IMG/VR virus record: IMGVR_UViG_2706795421_000001
Location: 22,247 to 86,246 of that record
Reading direction: 5' to 3' (one strand)
DNA: 64,000 nucleotides
Source: a virus
Taxonomy: Duplodnaviria; Heunggongvirae; Uroviricota; Caudoviricetes
Every line of letters begins with the position of its first letter. The first letter of the stretch is position 1. The position numbers and the translations under genes are program-made. The notes beneath the pieces are model-generated. The model saw only the letters and a list, made by a program, of their open reading frames with translations, ran no database searches and had not been told where the DNA came from. Of this stretch, positions 1,997-22,921 are shown one piece after another.

Positions 1997-2200
1997 GCGT
2001 TCCCGGAGCCGTATGGCGGGAGGGGTTGAAGGTTCACCACACGAACCCCCTATGCCCCGGAGGTTGCCGGGGTAGGTCCTTCAGGCTCTAAAGACCTGGA
2101 GAAGTGTCAGCCGGACCTTTGAGGATGGGAGTCCACCGGCACTCTTGACATAGCGTTCTGAACAAGGTTTAATGGCCTCCACGAAGAAACAGGAGGTATC

Positions 2201-2503
2201 ATGAGAAACATGTTCGTTACGCCCCATGCCAGGAAACGCTTTCGTGAGCGATTCCGGCTCCAGTTCCACCCGTCGGTTTTCGAGGACGGTCGAGACATCT
2301 ACGTCATACGGAAGCTTTTCGCTGAATCGAAATACTGCGACTTCGAGCTTCGTATGCGGGTAGGAAACTATAACGCTCTCTGCGTAAAGCACGGGAGGGT
2401 CGTAAGGGTTTCCAAGGTTCGGAATTTCGTATTCGTTCATGATGACTCGACGATCTACACAATCCTGAAGGAAGGGATGGTTCTGTCAAACGTGAGGTTT
2501 TAG
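2201..2503 (+). CDS. hypothetical protein (100 aa) in a lower-GC segment
   Basis: Perfect AGGAGG 6 nt upstream of the ATG at 2201. The antisense ORF 2081..2440 has no RBS. Confidence 0.45.
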   Translation: MRNMFVTPHARKRFRERFRLQFHPSVFEDGRDIYVIRKLFAESKYCDFELRMRVGNYNALCVKHGRVVRVSKVRNFVFVHDDSTIYTILKEGMVLSNVRF

Positions 2504-2575
2504 GGTAGGGGTCTTGGCGACCAGGTTGGACTCCAAATTCAACCCAGCTCAGTTCGAATCTGAGACTGCCCGCCA
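2503..2575 (+). tRNA. tRNA-like element, possible degenerate tRNA-Trp (anticodon CCA), atypical D-arm
   Basis: T-arm CTCAG-TTCGAAT-CTGAG, acceptor 3' ACTGCCC-G-CCA, anticodon stem-loop TTGGA-CTCCAAA-TTCAA. The acceptor has 6 of 7 pairs and the D-arm is reduced to a mini-hairpin. Confidence 0.3.
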
Positions 2576-2583
2576 AAAATCTC

Positions 2584-2611
2584 TTGACTTTATCGAAAAA
2601 TGTGGTAAAGT
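2584..2611 (+). promoter_or_regulatory. candidate promoter for the tRNA cluster (TTGACT-N16-TGgTAAAGT, extended -10)
   Basis: ttgact at 2584-2589, taaagt at 2606-2611, TG at -15/-14. Confidence 0.35.
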
Positions 2612-2767
2612 GGATTTAAGAGATTCAGATGTGGGACCGACGAAGCTGATGTGCAGAGGAGGTGATCCAGCATCTCCCGGACGGGTCCGGGTTACCAACC
2701 CGCTAATTTCTCAGCCCGACAGCAAGGGTAGTTCCTGCGGGGCCAGGGTCCAAGTGACCCTTCTACA

Positions 2768-2844
2768 TTCCGTTCGGTCCCTCAAGGCGAGGGAGCTTGA
2801 CTGTTAATCAAGACGTGCCTGGATCGATTCCAGGGAGCGGAGCC
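2768..2844 (+). tRNA. tRNA-Asn (anticodon GTT)
   Basis: Acceptor TCCGTTC/GAGCGGA with one G-U pair. D-stem TCCC/GGGA. Anticodon stem CTTGA/TCAAG, loop CTGTTAA. T-arm CCTGG-ATCGATT-CCAGG. Encoded GCCA end. Position 8 is G and position 54 is A, both unusual. Confidence 0.5.
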
Positions 2845-2902
2845 AAAAGAGTAACCTCCACGCATAAGGCCTGGCACTGCGCACCAGGAGGTTAGTTTCA
2901 AT

Positions 2903-2990
2903 GGAGGGGTGGCAGAGCGGTTTAATGCACCGGCCTGTAAATCCGGCGTCCGACCGAGCATCGCTGGTTCAAATCCAGCCCCCTCCACCA
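2903..2990 (+). tRNA. tRNA-Tyr (anticodon GTA), type II with long variable arm
   Basis: Acceptor GGAGGGG/CCCCTCC. D-stem GCA/TGC. Anticodon loop CTGTAAA. T-arm GCTGG-TTCAAAT-CCAGC. Discriminator A and CCA are encoded. Confidence 0.65.
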
Positions 2991-2993
2991 AAT

Positions 2994-3114
2994 GCTGTGT
3001 AAGTTGGACTGTTGCAGTGAAGCGATAGGCTCCCCGGATCGTAAGCCGGTAACGTGGGGATAGAGGGCTCCCACCGCTGAGCAACAGGAGGTTCGATTCC
3101 TCAACACAGCCCCA
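2994..3114 (+). tRNA. elongated 121-nt tRNA-like element (perfect acceptor stem, canonical T-arm, CCA; about 45 nt extra; anticodon unresolved)
   Basis: GCTGTGT at 2994-3000 pairs with ACACAGC at 3104-3110, then C and CCA. T-arm GGAGG-TTCGATT-CCTCA. Internal near-duplication GATAGGCTCC / GATAGAGGGCTCC. Starts 3 nt after tRNA-Tyr. Confidence 0.35.
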
Positions 3115-3191
3115 AAACTGCTCCAGGCAGTTCAGCTAGGCTAGGCTTGAGAGGTAGTAGCCCGTTTTTCCAAACCCTCTCACTTACAATC

Positions 3192-3267
3192 AGGCGTGTG
3201 GCGAAAAGGTTAACGCACTGGACTTTGACTCCAGCATTCGAGGGTTCGAATCCCTCCACGTCTGCCA
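3192..3267 (+). tRNA. tRNA-Gln (anticodon TTG)
   Basis: Acceptor AGGCGTG/CACGTCT with one G-U pair. Anticodon stem CTGGA/TCCAG, loop CTTTGAC. T-arm GAGGG-TTCGAAT-CCCTC. G and CCA are encoded. Length 76 nt. Confidence 0.65.
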
Positions 3268-3324
3268 ATACCCGATGCTAATTGGGTCTTGTCGCTCCGG
3301 GTCAGCGACTCAGAAGTGACCCTT

Positions 3325-3354
3325 AGCCCCGGCGATCTTCGCTGGGGCTTTTTA
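3325..3354 (+). terminator. rho-independent terminator after the tRNA cluster
   Basis: AGCCCCGGCGATCTTCGCTGGGGCTTTTT. Confidence 0.6.
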
Positions 3355-3376
3355 CTTTCTCAACCCGTAATGGAGG

Positions 3377-4201
3377 TTGCAAATGACGTTCCAACCCACT
3401 CACGCACAAGCCAGCGTGATGTCTGACGATAAACACATGATAATTCTCTACGCCTCCCACGCAGGAGGTGGCAAGTCTCACCTCGTGGCTAAGTGGCTCA
3501 CAGAGCCCATGCACTTGGAAGGCTACCGAGGCTTGGCAGCCCGGAAAACGATTCCATTCCTCCTAGGCCCTGGCGGCCTTTCGCAAAAGATAGTAGATGT
3601 TGATCCCTCTCTTCGGTTCTTTCGGAGAGATTTGATGGTAAGGGCTCCAGATCGCAGGTCTTCAATAGTTCTTCGTGGTATCTCAAGCGGGGAATCAGTT
3701 CGGAGCCTGGCAGGATTCGTATTTCAAAGGGCAGCATTTGACGAAGCCAATCAGATCGACAGCAGCGCCATAACGTACCTACTGAGCAGGCTTAGGAGCT
3801 TCCAATGCCCCGAGGTGACTCCCCAGGTTTTGATGGCATTCTCTCACGGCGACTACTCCAACACCTTCATGGACACCTTGGTAAGGCCGTTTATCAAGAG
3901 TAACGACAGTCAGAGAGGCCACGGAGGGGTAGGGCCGATTGATTCCGAGAAGAGCGGTCAGACACGTTGGCTCACCTTTGTACGGGGGCAGCCTATTGTG
4001 GCCTCAAGTCAAGAGTCTTTAATGGACATCCTGGAGTGCTACTCAGGTCGAAAACCTGAACAAGGAGCCTTGATTCCGTACACACTGTATTACCAGCCTG
4101 AAGTCCACCCAGTAGTAAAGGAGCTTCATCCGGAGTACGAATCATTCATTAAGAACCTCCAACCGCCCCTTCGTACCTGTATGAGCGGCTATTGGGGGTA
4201 A
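3377..4201 (+). CDS. terminase large-subunit ATPase-domain paralog (TerL N-domain-like, no nuclease domain), 274 aa
   Basis: GGAGG RBS. Aligns by eye to the N-terminal third of the downstream TerL: HAGGGKSHL vs GAGAGKSYL, RGLAARKTIPFLLGPGG vs RGLITRRTTPQIKGPGG, AFDEANQ vs LVDEGQQ, LLSRLRSFQCPEVTPQ vs LMSRMRGPKCPEVEPH. Confidence 0.65.
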   Translation: MQMTFQPTHAQASVMSDDKHMIILYASHAGGGKSHLVAKWLTEPMHLEGYRGLAARKTIPFLLGPGGLSQKIVDVDPSLRFFRRDLMVRAPDRRSSIVLRGISSGESVRSLAGFVFQRAAFDEANQIDSSAITYLLSRLRSFQCPEVTPQVLMAFSHGDYSNTFMDTLVRPFIKSNDSQRGHGGVGPIDSEKSGQTRWLTFVRGQPIVASSQESLMDILECYSGRKPEQGALIPYTLYYQPEVHPVVKELHPEYESFIKNLQPPLRTCMSGYWG

Positions 4202-4780: not shown

Positions 4781-6199
4781 ATGACTAAGACAGTCATCGG
4801 TCCTAAGTCTCCGAAGCAGGAAGCGTTTATCAACTCCACTGCGAACATCACCGTGTTCGGTGGAGCTGCCGGGGCTGGTAAATCCTACCTCGGAGTGATG
4901 GACTTTCTAAAGCATGTGAAGCACCCGATGTTCCGGGGCCTGATCACTCGACGGACCACGCCTCAGATCAAAGGTCCTGGCGGCATCTTGGATAACTGCC
5001 TTCAGTTGTACAAGCAGTTTGACAAGAAGGTCAAATGGAAGGACAAGGACGGGAAATTCGTCTTCTCCTCGGGAGCTGAGATTCACCTTCGACACTTTGC
5101 CCACATCGACGATAAGGACAACTACCAGGGTCTGGAAATCAACGAATTCCTCGTTGACGAAGGACAGCAATACACCCTGGACATGTTGCTTTACTTGATG
5201 TCTCGTATGCGTGGTCCGAAGTGCCCCGAGGTTGAACCTCACATGAAGATCACCTGCAACCCTGATTATAACAGTCCGCTGCGTAAGTGGCTGACTTGGT
5301 ACCTGGACCCTGAGACAGGTATCCCGCTCCCCGAGAGGGACGGAATCACTCGGTTCTTCACTATCCAAAACGGAGACATGGAGTTCGCTGACACAGCGGA
5401 AGAGCTGATTGAGAAGTACAACCTGAAGTCTCCTCCCCTGACTTTCAAGTTCATCTCCGCCAACGTATACGACAACCCTGTCGTAATGGAGATTAACCCC
5501 CAGTACGTTGCCTGGCTTGAAGGTTTGAACCGGGTTGAGAAACTTCGACTGCTCCATGGTAGTTGGTTTGCCCGAGAAGAAGCAAGCGGCTACTTCAAGC
5601 GAGAATGGACTCCAATCATTCCGCTTAGGCCTACAGATACCGTGAGACAGGTAAGAGCCTGGGATATCAGCGGTACGCTGCCATCTGACTCCAACAAAGA
5701 GCCAGACTGGACAGCAGGCGTATTGATGAGCAAAGGCCGGAGTACGCTATACACAATCGAGGATGTGGTAAGGGACCGACGCCGGATTGGCGGGGTTTTT
5801 GAACTGATCCTTGAGACAGCAAGACATGACGGAGCTGACACGACGATCCTGATTCCACGTGATCCAGGAGCGGCAGGCCAGCACCTCGCATGGGACTTTG
5901 TTCGCCGACTGGCTGAGCACGGTTTCCATGCCAGGACCCGTCCAACCAACAAATCAAAGGTCACCCGGTTCGGTCCTTTTGCCAGCATGGCAGAGGCTGG
6001 AGGTGTTCAGGTAGTAGAAGGCCCCTGGAACGAGGCTTACCTGACGGAGCTGGAGGTGTTTGACGGAAGCCGAAATGTGAAGGACGACCAGGTGGACGCC
6101 ACCTCGGACGCCTACACTTATCTGGCATCTGACATCCACATTCCCAACTTCATCCCTCCGGACCTAACCCGACCCAACCCGCTGGCCATTGAACGATAG
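4781..6199 (+). CDS. terL: terminase large subunit
   Basis: 472 aa. Walker A GGAAGAGKSY, Walker B LVDEGQQ. C-terminal nuclease-like region with acidic residues (DPGAAG..., DDQVDATSDAY). Confidence 0.9.
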   Translation: MTKTVIGPKSPKQEAFINSTANITVFGGAAGAGKSYLGVMDFLKHVKHPMFRGLITRRTTPQIKGPGGILDNCLQLYKQFDKKVKWKDKDGKFVFSSGAEIHLRHFAHIDDKDNYQGLEINEFLVDEGQQYTLDMLLYLMSRMRGPKCPEVEPHMKITCNPDYNSPLRKWLTWYLDPETGIPLPERDGITRFFTIQNGDMEFADTAEELIEKYNLKSPPLTFKFISANVYDNPVVMEINPQYVAWLEGLNRVEKLRLLHGSWFAREEASGYFKREWTPIIPLRPTDTVRQVRAWDISGTLPSDSNKEPDWTAGVLMSKGRSTLYTIEDVVRDRRRIGGVFELILETARHDGADTTILIPRDPGAAGQHLAWDFVRRLAEHGFHARTRPTNKSKVTRFGPFASMAEAGGVQVVEGPWNEAYLTELEVFDGSRNVKDDQVDATSDAYTYLASDIHIPNFIPPDLTRPNPLAIER

Positions 6200-21454: not shown

Positions 21455-22921
21455 ATGGCTGGATTGACTGACAAAGGGCTGGAAATCCGGTACCTTCCTG
21501 AGGTACTGGAGCAGTACCACAACCGTGCTCAAGACATCTTCTCTGACGAAGTTGAGCCTGGCGATGTAGTGGATACCAGTGAGAACTCAGCCCTGGGCCG
21601 AATGATCGGCGTTGTGGCACCAAGCGTAGCTGAACTGTGGGAAGCACTGCAAGAGGTTCATGACAGTTTCAACCCCAACGTGGCAACAGGCTACGCTCTG
21701 GATAACGAAGTCGCCCTGTCCGGTATCATCCGGTATGCCGAAGAGCCCACCAGGGCTCAGGTGGTGTTTGAGGGCAACTACAACATCGTGGTCAGCTCCG
21801 TAGGCTCTGTCTCCTCTAGCGTCACTCTGAGGCAGTTCCGGGTGATTACCCCGGTCCTGATGAACCTCCAACAGGCTTCAGGGGTAGCCTGGAGGGTTAC
21901 GGCAGTAGAAGCGGGTCATGAGTACAAGATTGGCTACTCGACCGATGGTGGCAGTAACTTCGTGTACGCCACTTACACTGCAACCGCCACAGATACAGCA
22001 GCGTCGATTCAGACTATGCTGGGCCAGAGAGTTTCTCAGTCGTGGACCAGCTTCGAAACACAGACTGATGCAAAGAACAACTACAACTGGGCACGTCGCC
22101 GGAATCGTCTCCAGATTGTCCACTTCGACTTGGACCCTCGTATCACTCCGATCAAGGTGGCGAAGCCTGGGGTGGTAGAGGATACCCAGATGGGGCCCTC
22201 GACTCAACTGCCCGGAACGATTGACACAATCTCGGTTCCGATCCTGGGCTGGGATTCGGTGTACAACCCCACCAACGCAGTATCTGGCAGGTTCCGGGAA
22301 ACGGATGTGGAACTCCGGGAACGGTGGAGGAACTCGAAGTTCTATCAGGCAGCGGCGATCTTGGAAGCGATGCTGGATGGTATGCACCAGGTTCCAGGGG
22401 TACGAGACGTAACCATCATCGAGAACGATACCAACAATCATGACTCGGTGCATAACGTCCCGCCCCACGCCTTCACGGTGATCACCCATGGAGGTGATGA
22501 TTCCGACATCGGGAAGATGATTTGGCAGAAGAAACCCACAGGCATCCAAGCCTACGGCGACACGGTGGTGCAGATCGCTGACTCCCAGGGCAAGGTTCAC
22601 TCCATCGGGTTCCGACGAGCCGAGGAATTGGAAGTACAGGTAAACCTGAACATCTCGGCTATTGCAGGGCAGGTTCTGCCAGGCGATGTGAAGGAACAGG
22701 TTACTGCTGCCATTCTGGCGTATCAAGATGGACTGGACAAAATCGGTAAAGAGGTGGTATACTCTAGACTATACACTCCAATTAACAGTGTTCCAGGGTT
22801 CCAGGTTAACAGCCTGACCATTGGAAAGAAAGGGGGCACCCAGGCCATGGCGAACATCCCTGTGGGGTACGACGAAGTGGCTATTTTCGATGCCACCCGT
22901 ATTGCAATTACGGTGACCTGA
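21455..22921 (+). CDS. baseplate J-like protein (488 aa)
   Basis: taaATG overlap. Position after W. Confidence 0.65.
   Translation: MAGLTDKGLEIRYLPEVLEQYHNRAQDIFSDEVEPGDVVDTSENSALGRMIGVVAPSVAELWEALQEVHDSFNPNVATGYALDNEVALSGIIRYAEEPTRAQVVFEGNYNIVVSSVGSVSSSVTLRQFRVITPVLMNLQQASGVAWRVTAVEAGHEYKIGYSTDGGSNFVYATYTATATDTAASIQTMLGQRVSQSWTSFETQTDAKNNYNWARRRNRLQIVHFDLDPRITPIKVAKPGVVEDTQMGPSTQLPGTIDTISVPILGWDSVYNPTNAVSGRFRETDVELRERWRNSKFYQAAAILEAMLDGMHQVPGVRDVTIIENDTNNHDSVHNVPPHAFTVITHGGDDSDIGKMIWQKKPTGIQAYGDTVVQIADSQGKVHSIGFRRAEELEVQVNLNISAIAGQVLPGDVKEQVTAAILAYQDGLDKIGKEVVYSRLYTPINSVPGFQVNSLTIGKKGGTQAMANIPVGYDEVAIFDATRIAITVT

Follow-up and report, generated by a model that had tools for sequence, protein, structure and literature searches.

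A tRNA-like stable RNA and a compact tRNA-Trp-like gene in the tRNA operon of Nankokuvirus phages

What are two misshapen genes doing in a phage cluster of otherwise ordinary transfer RNA (tRNA) genes? The question is raised by a stretch of 64,000 nucleotides (nt) from a virus of the Caudoviricetes (IMG/VR virus record IMGVR_UViG_2706795421_000001, positions 22,247 to 86,246), which we refer to, at its full length, as the window. Five tRNA-like genes lie between positions 2503 and 3267, of which a first-pass annotation of the sequence had described three as ordinary (Asn-GTT, Tyr-GTA and Gln-TTG) and two as aberrant. ARAGORN in its default mode agrees on the three, and both odd elements were found where they had been placed: a short one with a CCA (Trp) anticodon loop, here called Element 1, and one of 121 nt, here called Element 2, which starts 3 nt (AAT) past the CCA of tRNA-Tyr. 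Our overall explanation, which we regard as probable, is that Element 2 is a stable non-coding RNA built on a tRNA scaffold and does not decode, that Element 1 is a compact tRNA-Trp, and that host enzymes carry out the processing.

By BLAST, window positions 2450-3380 are 100% identical to Pseudomonas phage vB_PaeM_PAO1_Ab03 (Ab03), a Nankokuvirus, and at least 98% identical to about 40 sister genomes, including those of KPP10 and PAK_P3. Over window positions 2985-3125 identity with PAK_P3 is 100%, and a PAK_P3 annotation derived from RNA-seq, 'sRNA2', overlaps Element 2. Two papers on PAK_P3 describe this RNA in the text passages retrieved from them. In the first, sRNA2 is a transcript of about 100 nt situated between two phage tRNAs and among the most highly expressed late features; it carries an 11-nt stretch that matches the T-loops of host tRNAs exactly and is conserved among PAK_P1-like phages; the roles proposed for it were of the small RNA (sRNA) type or ribosome-blocking (Chevallereau 2016, PMC4933390). 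In the second, the RNA was mapped by ONT-cappable-seq, under the name ncRNA2, to PAK_P3 86307-86426(+); the early sRNA2 boundaries (window ~3031-3164) were corrected, the RNA was without a transcription start site and enriched in the processed-RNA library, and a northern blot revealed an abundant species of about 120 nt that rises during infection (Putzeys 2024, PMC10914365).

The interval mapped in PAK_P3 translates to window positions 2994-3113. Its 5' end is the first predicted acceptor base of Element 2 and its 3' end is the CC of the encoded CCA, the terminal A being presumably unresolvable after poly(A) tailing. That the Element 2 RNA exists, how large it is, when it appears and that it is processed had already been published. 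The first-pass annotation had staked its claim on a stable RNA arising from this locus in infected cells; PAK_P3, identical in sequence, shows an RNA of that size and position (PMC10914365, retrieved passages), and among the roles then suggested that of a processing scaffold fits best, as the published RNA is processed, lacks a transcription start site and has tRNA-type ends. What appears to be new is the tRNA-like description, with its covarying helices, stemless D linker, kink-turn-like loop and three-way junction: neither the retrieved text passages of the two PAK_P3 papers (figures and supplements aside) nor the searchable literature elsewhere describes a tRNA-like fold, covariation, GA/GA loop or three-way junction for ncRNA2. 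PAK_P3 also has a late antisense RNA, as19, annotated opposite Element 2 (window ~3007-3136 (-); 2057-2186 (-) in our PAK_P3 locus L001), and a second, as20, opposite the start of the downstream open reading frame (ORF).

The original proposal, in which sRNA2 acts in trans by base pairing or blocks the ribosome through its T-loop-like 11-mer, is in our judgement improbable. The 11-nt matches to gp67 and to host tRNA T-loops were listed in the retrieved passages that propose it (PMC4933390); however, the 11-mer is the T loop of the tRNA-like fold described below, where it is buried in a hairpin, and the predicted host targets were not differentially expressed (PMC4933390). The boundaries on which the proposal was based are also those later corrected (PMC10914365).

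Table 1. Coordinates, in the window, of the two odd elements, their parts and the other features of the tRNA operon (bp, base pairs)
Feature	Position	Strand	Basis or remark
Element 1, compact tRNA-Trp(CCA)-like, 70 nt + encoded CCA	2503..2575	+	sequence, minimum-energy cloverleaf, covariation
Element 1 acceptor stem	2503-2509/2565-2571		seventh pair G x A in the window
Element 1 D arm	2510-2522		13 nt, no U8
Element 1 anticodon arm	2526-2542		loop CUCCAAA, anticodon CCA at 2533-2535
Element 1 T arm	2548-2564		
Element 1 G73 and CCA	2572; 2573-2575		
Sigma-70-like promoter	2584..2611	+	TTGACT, 16 nt, TAAAGT with TG; consensus scan
tRNA-Asn(GTT), atypical (G8, G9, A54)	2769..2845	+	ARAGORN default
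tRNA-Tyr(GTA), class II, encoded CCA	2903..2990	+	ARAGORN default; Rfam 57.5 bits
Element 2, tRNA-like stable RNA, = PAK_P3 ncRNA2/sRNA2	2994..3114	+	identity, published mapping, covariation
Element 2 acceptor stem	2994-3000/3104-3110		GCUGUGU/ACACAGC, perfect 7 bp; stem covaries
Element 2 stemless D-loop-like linker AAGUUGGA	3001-3008	+	GG kept, no stem
Element 2 helix A, 5' strand (partner 3081-3087)	3009..3015	+	7 bp, 100% paired, 4 two-sided-change pairs
Element 2 kink-turn-like internal loop, bulged strand (partner strand 3076-3080)	3016..3023	+	sequence pattern in variants
Element 2 hairpin 2, CCGG/CCGG stem, invariant loop AUCGUAAG	3034..3049	+	100% paired, one compensatory pair (C-G to U-A)
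Element 2 hairpin 3, 6-bp stem, loop AUAGNGGGC	3054..3074	+	100% paired; 2 compensatory pairs + 2 one-sided changes
Element 2 T arm	3088-3102		GAGG-UUCGAUU-CCUC
Element 2 discriminator C and encoded CCA	3111; 3112-3114		
tRNA-Gln(TTG), canonical	3192..3267	+	ARAGORN default; Rfam 66.9 bits
Intrinsic terminator	3325..3349	+	G+C-rich 11-bp stem, then T run; closes tRNA operon

We aligned eight distinct variants of Element 2, drawn from about 170 Nankokuvirus and Pakpunavirus genomes. Five helices of the minimum-energy fold are supported by the alignment: the acceptor stem, helix A, hairpins 2 and 3, and the T stem (Table 1). In the final model 96.4% of cells are paired and ten pairs show changes on both sides, compared with 31-51% pairing in slid registers. 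Over Elements 1 and 2 together, column-shuffled alignments reach any given observed structure measure at most 11 times in 500, and slid registers are 28-52% paired. Natural PAK_P1-type variants also tend to repair pairs: in EPA1 a C7-to-U change restores the seventh acceptor pair, and in Adele a U-to-C change turns a G.U pair into G-C.

Much of the outline of Element 2 had been drawn correctly from the sequence, namely the 7-bp acceptor stem, canonical T loop, discriminator, CCA, length and 3-nt gap; the T stem had been taken as canonical as well, and in Ab03 it consists of 4 bp plus a G.A, with 5 bp in phipa10 and EM. The T loop is invariant and matches UUCRANY, and the T stem contains one compensatory pair. 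Below this acceptor and T arm the likeness to a canonical tRNA ends. There is no D stem-loop, the place of which is taken by an unpaired GG linker (AAGUUGGA, AAUGGUA, AAUGGAA or AACGGAA; 8 nt in the window and 7 nt in Pakpunavirus), and nothing that matches an anticodon arm, with its 5-bp stem, 7-nt loop and conserved anticodon. Helix A occupies the place of the anticodon stem, so that the anticodon-arm position holds a 7-bp helix, the GA/GA loop and a three-way junction. The near-direct duplication that had been noted within the element is real (GATAGGCTCC at 3024-3033 and GATAGAGGGCTCC at 3059-3071); in the model the two near-repeats play different roles, one being a junction strand and the other spanning the loop and 3' stem strand of hairpin 3.

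The consensus of a kink-turn is a Watson-Crick helix ending in C-G, a 3-nt bulge, a tandem G.A/A.G and a short second helix. Element 2 displays the same layout: helix A ends at C3015-G3081 and is followed by a 3-nt bulge (3016-3018), the predicted tandem sheared pairs G3019.A3080 and A3020.G3079, and a short distal stem (A3021-U3078, G3022-C3077, C3023-G3076). The GA/GA is kept in seven of the eight variants, while the bulge and the neighbouring pair, 3b.3n, vary, and the same GUGA and CUGA take part in a sub-threshold Rfam alignment to sR44, a C/D-box sRNA of archaea. The minimum-energy fold had instead placed a junction helix of 4 bp here (3016-3019/3075-3078); as it is broken in all six Pakpunavirus variants, we put the candidate kink-turn in its place. 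An RNAalifold alternative, GCUC/GAGC, was rejected because it conflicts with the covarying helix A and is broken by a G-to-U change in PaoP5 and pPA-3099. A pseudoknot between GCUC (3029-3032) and GGGC (3065-3068, in the loop of hairpin 3) is possible in the model.

We found no tRNA call within 2994-3114 with ARAGORN in its default, -ps, intron, mitochondrial or tmRNA (transfer-messenger RNA) modes, and no match of Element 2 to the Rfam tRNA family RF00005 even at E <= 10; the best match within the clan was to tRNA-Sec, at 12.4 bits. Permissive and intron searches thus gave no standard tRNA with other boundaries to which the region could be reassigned. The suggestion in the first-pass annotation that Element 2 is a tRNA with an insertion or intron, which would then be spliced or decode as it stands, has its attraction in the perfect acceptor stem, the T arm, and the discriminator and CCA of the Nankokuvirus sequence, and we consider it very unlikely. 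It is rejected by a deletion scan, in which about 2400 single-deletion variants (15-65 nt) of each of three homologues yielded no default ARAGORN call, and by the lack of a conserved anticodon-like loop, discriminator or CCA across the variants. Relaxed ARAGORN calls on the deletion variants disagree among the three homologues (Gly-CCC, none, and Ala-AGC or Arg-GCG). Nankokuvirus has C as the discriminator and Pakpunavirus has A; only the former encodes CCA, and neither genus has a D stem. The mature RNA is moreover about 120 nt long, according to the retrieved passages of the mapping paper (PMC10914365), and so is not spliced. Nor is Element 2 a tmRNA: position 3:70 is U-A, C-G or U.G rather than G3.U70, there is no tag frame, ARAGORN makes no tmRNA call, and the sole tmRNA-type Rfam match, tmRNA_permuted, scores 11.1 bits against a gathering score of 47. 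A 'tRNA-Gly' annotated over Element 2 in phiMK is a coordinate typo with a span of 61 kb.

Homologues of Element 2 occur in Pakpunavirus (PAK_P1, JG004, PaP1, phipa10, EM and others) at about 75-80% identity, with tRNA-His upstream and tRNA-Thr downstream. The element is annotated in none of the Pakpunavirus records; in several, a spurious ORF has been placed on the opposite strand at this position. A search of IMG/VR with patterns based on the loop of hairpin 2 and on the T loop recovered known isolates only; a looser pattern, ATCGTAAG...TAGNGGGCTC, matched a coding gene of gut phages that is unrelated. In GTDB genomes and JGI metagenomes, pattern scans gave chance matches only and no further members of the family: tRNA genes for Thr and Ala with GATCGTAAGCC in front of them, what is probably the 3' end of one tmRNA, and coding DNA. 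A covariance model of Element 2, R1, scores 134.5 bits on the window and found no further member in about 1.27 Mb of phage tRNA-cluster loci, where weak matches (at most 25 bits) arise from acceptor/T similarity to ordinary or other odd tRNAs. As neither the pattern scans nor the R1 search yielded others, the family appears to be confined to Nankokuvirus and Pakpunavirus.

These comparisons bear on whether Element 2 does anything in trans. It might instead be a punctuation or processing module, or a decayed tRNA, that separates tRNA-Tyr from tRNA-Gln and accumulates merely because it is tRNA-shaped. A polycistronic tRNA precursor, a start 3 nt after a tRNA, tRNA-type ends and a processed species all agree with such a role, which we nevertheless think unlikely. 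An acceptor/T minihelix would be enough for punctuation. Compensatory changes nevertheless preserve helix A, both hairpins (2 and 3) and the GA/GA loop, and two of the loops do not vary at all between two genera whose identity is otherwise about 75-80%. In addition, the element lies between different tRNAs (His and Thr) in Pakpunavirus and so moves as a unit.

Several observations made in the course of these searches concern other loci. Over-long tRNA-like genes of 116-139 nt, none homologous to Element 2, are present in other phage tRNA clusters from IMG/VR (L127 9915-10031(-), L054 2003-2120(-), L066 4244-4361(+), L051 7552-7667(+), L137 7463-7578(-), L150 4082-4220(-), L124 228-355(-) and L157 4537-4656(+)). 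Some have normal acceptor, D and T arms with an insertion of 40-60 nt and an encoded CCA; one resembles tRNA-Leu(UAA) with a 24-nt hairpin inserted directly 3' of the anticodon, and two have two T arms. A metagenome-assembled genome of the Pirellulaceae contains a tRNA-like locus of about 130 nt (L169 1121-1215(-); acceptor GCCGGGU/(G)CCCCGGC, with a T arm) that includes a hairpin identical to hairpin 2 of Element 2 (CCGG-AUCGUAAG-CCGG). This likeness may be coincidental, given that the search pattern pre-selects part of that sequence; the extra matching stem bases are improbable as a chance event (about 1 in 1000 per match).

Element 1 poses a different problem, that of a recognisable tRNA with one arm shrunken. 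Its CCA anticodon loop, its good acceptor and T arms and its shortened D region had all been read correctly from the sequence. A D arm of standard form is absent. The region can be drawn as GGUC/GACC with a 5-nt loop, as in the minimum-energy fold, or as UUGG/CCAG with a 3-nt loop, as by ARAGORN; the mini-hairpin previously reported likewise has a 3-nt loop, and because the D region, GGUCUUGGCGACC, is invariant, comparison cannot choose between them. The shrunken D arm is also the reason why standard tools miss the gene. Default ARAGORN makes no call, and the best Rfam match is to tRNA-Sec at 17.8 bits, below threshold. ARAGORN calls tRNA-Trp(cca) at 2503-2575 only with -ps90, -ps80 or -mt; as relaxed ARAGORN makes 72 calls in the window, and about 40 in every 64 kb of shuffled sequence, it is too permissive and we did not use these calls as proof. 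Element 1 is unannotated in all Nankokuvirus records examined. It starts on the final nucleotide of the stop codon of ORF54 (TAG 2501-2503) and is situated upstream of the promoter for the remaining tRNAs.

Homologues of Element 1 were found in Otagovirus COT4, in phage Boevelstad and in three uncultured IMG/VR contigs, each inside a large tRNA array. Over the six sequences and 21 pairs, 96% of cells are paired and eight pairs show two-sided changes, whereas slid controls are 33-45% paired; covariation thus maintains a cloverleaf order of acceptor, anticodon and T arms. Five versions of the T stem occur in the six sequences (CUCAG/CUGAG, CUCCG/CGGAG, CUUAG/CUAAG, CUUCG/CGAAG and CUUGG/CCAAG), and the acceptor and anticodon stems show compensatory changes too, across Nankokuvirus and Otagovirus-like phages. 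The anticodon CCA and G73 are determinants for tryptophanyl-tRNA synthetase. The anticodon loop CUCCAAA, G73 and the CCA are invariant in all six sequences, so that the bacterial Trp identity elements are present throughout. As the anticodon, G73 and CCA are kept, Element 1 probably still works as a Trp tRNA. Among 125 phage Trp-like genes with the same anticodon and T-loop pattern, 106 are canonical by ARAGORN and the short-D type is uncalled; the short-D type is therefore a distinct derived group. Within the stretches of about 5 kb of tRNA array that were scanned in COT4 and Boevelstad, there is no other tRNA-Trp.

Element 1 might instead be a decaying tRNA-Trp pseudogene: default ARAGORN and Rfam overlook it, the records leave it unannotated, its seventh acceptor pair is a G x A, U8 is missing, and its D arm falls short of that of any standard tRNA by at least 3 nt. 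We nonetheless find this reading doubtful: the compensatory changes in three stems across Nankokuvirus and Otagovirus-like phages, the invariance of the anticodon loop, G73 and CCA, and the standing of this gene as the sole one of Trp type within the scanned arrays all argue against decay. The label 'aberrant' should accordingly be revised, for comparison with related phages gives eight compensatory pairs, and Element 1 is better read, judging from the sequences compared, as probably a working but compact tRNA-Trp, real and non-canonical rather than a relic. As an unannotated gene of this kind it appears to be new relative to the searchable literature. Two IMG/VR loci (L050 and L148) contain a Trp-like gene with nearly the same acceptor and 3' end (GGGUAGC...GCUGCCC-G-CCA) and a longer D region, likewise without a default ARAGORN call; this gene may be an intermediate in D-arm shrinkage.

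How could such a locus work? In the mechanism that we propose, the promoter would drive a single precursor that comprises a leader, tRNA-Asn, tRNA-Tyr, Element 2, a spacer and tRNA-Gln and ends at the terminator, and Element 1 would belong to the transcript before it, that of ORF54, at its 3' end. Each tRNA-shaped unit would be freed by host RNase P together with enzymes of 3' maturation. For Element 2, RNase P would cut at the 5' end, 3 nt past tRNA-Tyr, and host 3' trimming and CCA enzymes would finish the 3' end, leaving an RNA that is stable and abundant late in infection. The acceptor stacked on the T arm, together with the GG linker, would correspond to the acceptor/T 'top half' and elbow of a tRNA and serve as a handle for processing and stability. 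In place of the D stem and anticodon arm there would be an effector module, made up of helix A, the GA/GA loop, a 3-bp stem and the three-way junction, which would display two hairpins with the invariant loops AUCGUAAG and AUAGNGGGC. The degree to which the module is conserved argues for a function in trans, and most likely the module binds a host partner, protein or RNA, from the translation or tRNA machinery. Aminoacylation of Element 1, like the processing enzymes, the kink-turn fold, the pseudoknot and any function in trans, is something that we infer.

Several points weigh against this explanation. The eight variants of Element 2 span two related genera only, and a shuffle control of the kind used can overstate the covariation signal. 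Folding energies are not better than those of shuffled sequence (z = -1.5 and -1.1 for the two elements); as these energies and the relaxed ARAGORN calls are uninformative, the case rests on comparative evidence. The kink-turn is proposed from a sequence pattern, and one variant, represented by the two isolates PaoP5 and pPA-3099, has a G-to-U change at the kink-turn 2n position; pPA-3099 came to light when six further PAK_P1-type isolates were checked. The pseudoknot is without covariation, all four pairs being possible and the bases invariant. The authors who mapped ncRNA2 read it, in the retrieved passages, as a fragment processed from the upstream 3' untranslated region and not as tRNA-like (PMC10914365). 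As for Element 1, the PAK_P3 nanopore pipeline, as described in the same passages, misses RNAs shorter than about 80 nt (PMC10914365).

If Element 2 does act in trans, one candidate role is that of an anti-defence decoy or sponge, in which the top half would lure a host immune nuclease or sensor directed at tRNA, and the non-tRNA lower half would withstand or capture it, so that host and phage tRNAs are protected late in infection. This would refine rather than contradict the explanation above, and we advance it tentatively. According to published work, phage tRNAs counter tRNA-cleaving defences such as PARIS, retron/PtuAB and Septu acting on tRNA-Tyr, along with Schlafen and OLD; the few tRNAs kept by this phage include Tyr, a target of such systems, and Element 2 is abundant late. 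The retrieved passages on PAK_P3 report strong induction of a host RNA-repair operon containing rtcB, which the authors linked to tRNA damage, yet deletion of host rtcB was without effect on plating (PMC4933390). Support from rtcB induction and from the literature on phage tRNA counter-defence is circumstantial. Against a decoy, Element 2 also has no anticodon-like loop to cleave. We know of no defence system that recognises an acceptor/T minihelix with such an arm. A broader and equally speculative reading takes Element 2 as the first member, defined by its structure, of a class of 'half-tRNA' effector RNAs in phages. The tRNA top half would recruit host enzymes of tRNA maturation and lend stability, and the kink-turn/three-way-junction module would capture a host factor directed at tRNA; candidates are a nuclease or sensor of immunity, factors of the SmpB/EF-Tu type and RtcR, the damage sensor.

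The genomic setting of the two elements is that of the Nankokuvirus tRNA operon, which stands where the leftward early and middle genes meet a rightward module for packaging and structure. For the cluster region, the Ab03 RefSeq record annotates tRNA-Asn, tRNA-Tyr and tRNA-Gln only. Upstream is a small rightward module composed of a DUF5681 protein, a small ORF and ORF54; downstream, a true T4-type terminase large subunit is encoded at 4781-6199. The placement of the cluster between a gene like the terminase small subunit and a paralog of the large subunit (TerL), as first proposed, is thus roughly right: the downstream ORF of 274 amino acids has no Pfam match, and the true TerL is the gene at 4781-6199. 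That ORF (3377-4201 (+)) is labelled 'terminase large subunit' in the PAK_P3 annotation and is represented in the Ab03 RefSeq record solely by the 59-amino-acid C-terminal ORF55. No tRNA-processing, RNA-ligase or L7Ae-like gene appears among the RefSeq product names for positions 1-45000 of the Ab03 record.

Proximity to TerL invites comparison with the packaging RNA (pRNA) of phi29. Size (about 120 nt), late timing, a three-way junction and a position upstream of TerL are all that such a packaging-motor role for Element 2 has to recommend it, along with the GCUC/GGGC complementarity, which could act between molecules. We regard it as extremely unlikely. There is no similarity in sequence or structure to phi29 pRNA, which to our knowledge is confined to phi29-like phages; the tRNA operon, found at this place in all these phages, accounts for the position; and the TerL in the window is a standard T4-type terminase.

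Of the three ordinary tRNA genes, that for Asn is atypical, and the G8 and A54 that had been pointed out are confirmed in the gene sequence. Its T-loop is AUCGAUU, and its Rfam tRNA score (21.2 bits) is below the gathering score of 29. When phage Asn genes are compared, G8 is common to those of phipa10, COT4 and Boevelstad, and A54 is found in the Nankokuvirus sequence only. In tRNA-Tyr the last anticodon-stem pair, 31:39, is a C x U mismatch beside the anticodon loop, flagged both by ARAGORN and by the Rfam alignment.

The operon promoter coincides with the PAK_P3 annotation 'putative promoter_18'. In the leader between it and tRNA-Asn, window positions 2647-2667 include a perfect 12-nt Shine-Dalgarno sequence, AGGAGGUGAUCC, complementary to the 3' end of 16S rRNA. 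It sits within the hairpin GGAGGUG-AUCCAG-CAUCUCC, the 3' strand of which is anti-Shine-Dalgarno-like. The leader block 2646-2700 is kept in Pakpunavirus, directly upstream of tRNA-Cys, and the reading frame that follows is not conserved (19 codons in the window and 7 in Pakpunavirus); the block looks like an RNA element rather than a gene start. In the spacer between Element 2 and tRNA-Gln (3134-3181), a 45-nt block is 89% identical to the Pseudomonas syringae phages KIL1 and KIL4, where it lies directly upstream of tRNA-Arg and after an annotated promoter (KIL1 locus L005 2501-2545). Its hairpin, GAGAGG...CCUCUC, shows compensatory changes in KIL1 (GUCAGG...CCUGAU), and the 21-nt loop is conserved; the loop AGCC could pair with an upstream GGCU, a pseudoknot candidate. 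Upstream of the cluster, window positions ~1935-2145 correspond to another PAK_P3 RNA, ncRNA1 (85248-85458, about 210 nt, abundant late and processed), which shares sequence with the 3' end of ORF53 and with the spacer that separates ORF53 from ORF54.

Since T4 species 1 and 2, phage tRNA operons have been known to contain stable RNAs that have the shape of a tRNA without being one. They have gone unexplained, the two T4 RNAs for about 50 years. Element 2 is a useful case because expression data are published for an identical sequence, and it occurs in therapy-relevant Pseudomonas phages with about 170 sequenced genomes. In its secondary structure, which covariation supports, a generic tRNA 'handle' can be told apart from an effector module that is conserved and mutable. 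With expression data, genomes and a structure in hand, the question of what Element 2 does is directly testable. If the tentative 'half-tRNA' reading were true, Element 2 would be an RNA-based counter-defence or translation-control device, and would offer a testable model for the T4 RNAs. Element 1, for its part, demonstrates that standard annotation misses a conserved tRNA-Trp in the Nankokuvirus records examined and in related phages, which bears on counts of phage tRNA repertoires and on arguments about tRNA-targeting defences.

Four known systems resemble parts of what we describe. Mammalian mitochondrial tRNA-Ser(UCN) shares with Element 1 a spacing of 0-1 nt between acceptor and D arm and a very short D loop; the anticodon stem of Element 1 can likewise extend to 7 bp in Ab03, and the metazoan-mitochondrial mode of ARAGORN calls the gene. 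The likeness is structural only, as Element 1 is a phage gene in a bacterial host, with a canonical T arm and loop and an encoded CCA. The internal loop of Element 2 fits the layout of kink-turns of the C/D-box and Kt-7 type at the level of sequence, with one lineage carrying U at 2n; we know of no L7Ae-type binding protein in Pseudomonas. In the tRNA-like domain of tmRNA, the acceptor is stacked on the T arm, the D-loop analogue is without a stem, a long helix leaves from the anticodon-stem position, and there is no variable loop. Element 2 appears analogous in its acceptor/T stacking, its stemless D analogue and the long helix at the anticodon-stem position without a variable loop, and differs in lacking G3.U70, the tag frame and the ring of pseudoknots and in being 121 nt long rather than about 350 nt. 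PAK_P3 sRNA2/ncRNA2 is the same RNA as Element 2 and differs in how it has been read, in the retrieved passages of the two papers, as an sRNA or as a fragment of a 3' untranslated region, with only the 11-nt T-loop match noted.

A further parallel is with phage T4, whose species 1 (rnaC, 139 nt) and species 2 (rnaD, 119 nt) are, like Element 2, small stable RNAs inside a phage tRNA cluster; their function is still unknown, according to a retrieved passage (PMC4933390). The T4 RNAs differ from Element 2 in internal architecture, in not having the GA/GA loop in the same place, and in their hosts and phage families. We found no homology between Element 2 and rnaC or rnaD: over the T4 locus (L017) model R1 matches tRNA-Thr only, at 16.4 bits, and a BLAST search with window positions 2991-3192 gave no link to T-even phages. 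T4 rnaC nonetheless shares the design of Element 2, with paired 5' and 3' ends, a canonical T arm (CCGGG-UUCGAAU-CCCGG), a stemless GG linker and a long arm replacing the anticodon arm. Element 2 is, as its expression in PAK_P3 indicates, a stable processed RNA of non-tRNA type within a phage tRNA operon, and the kind of object to which it belongs is as old as T4 species 1 and 2.

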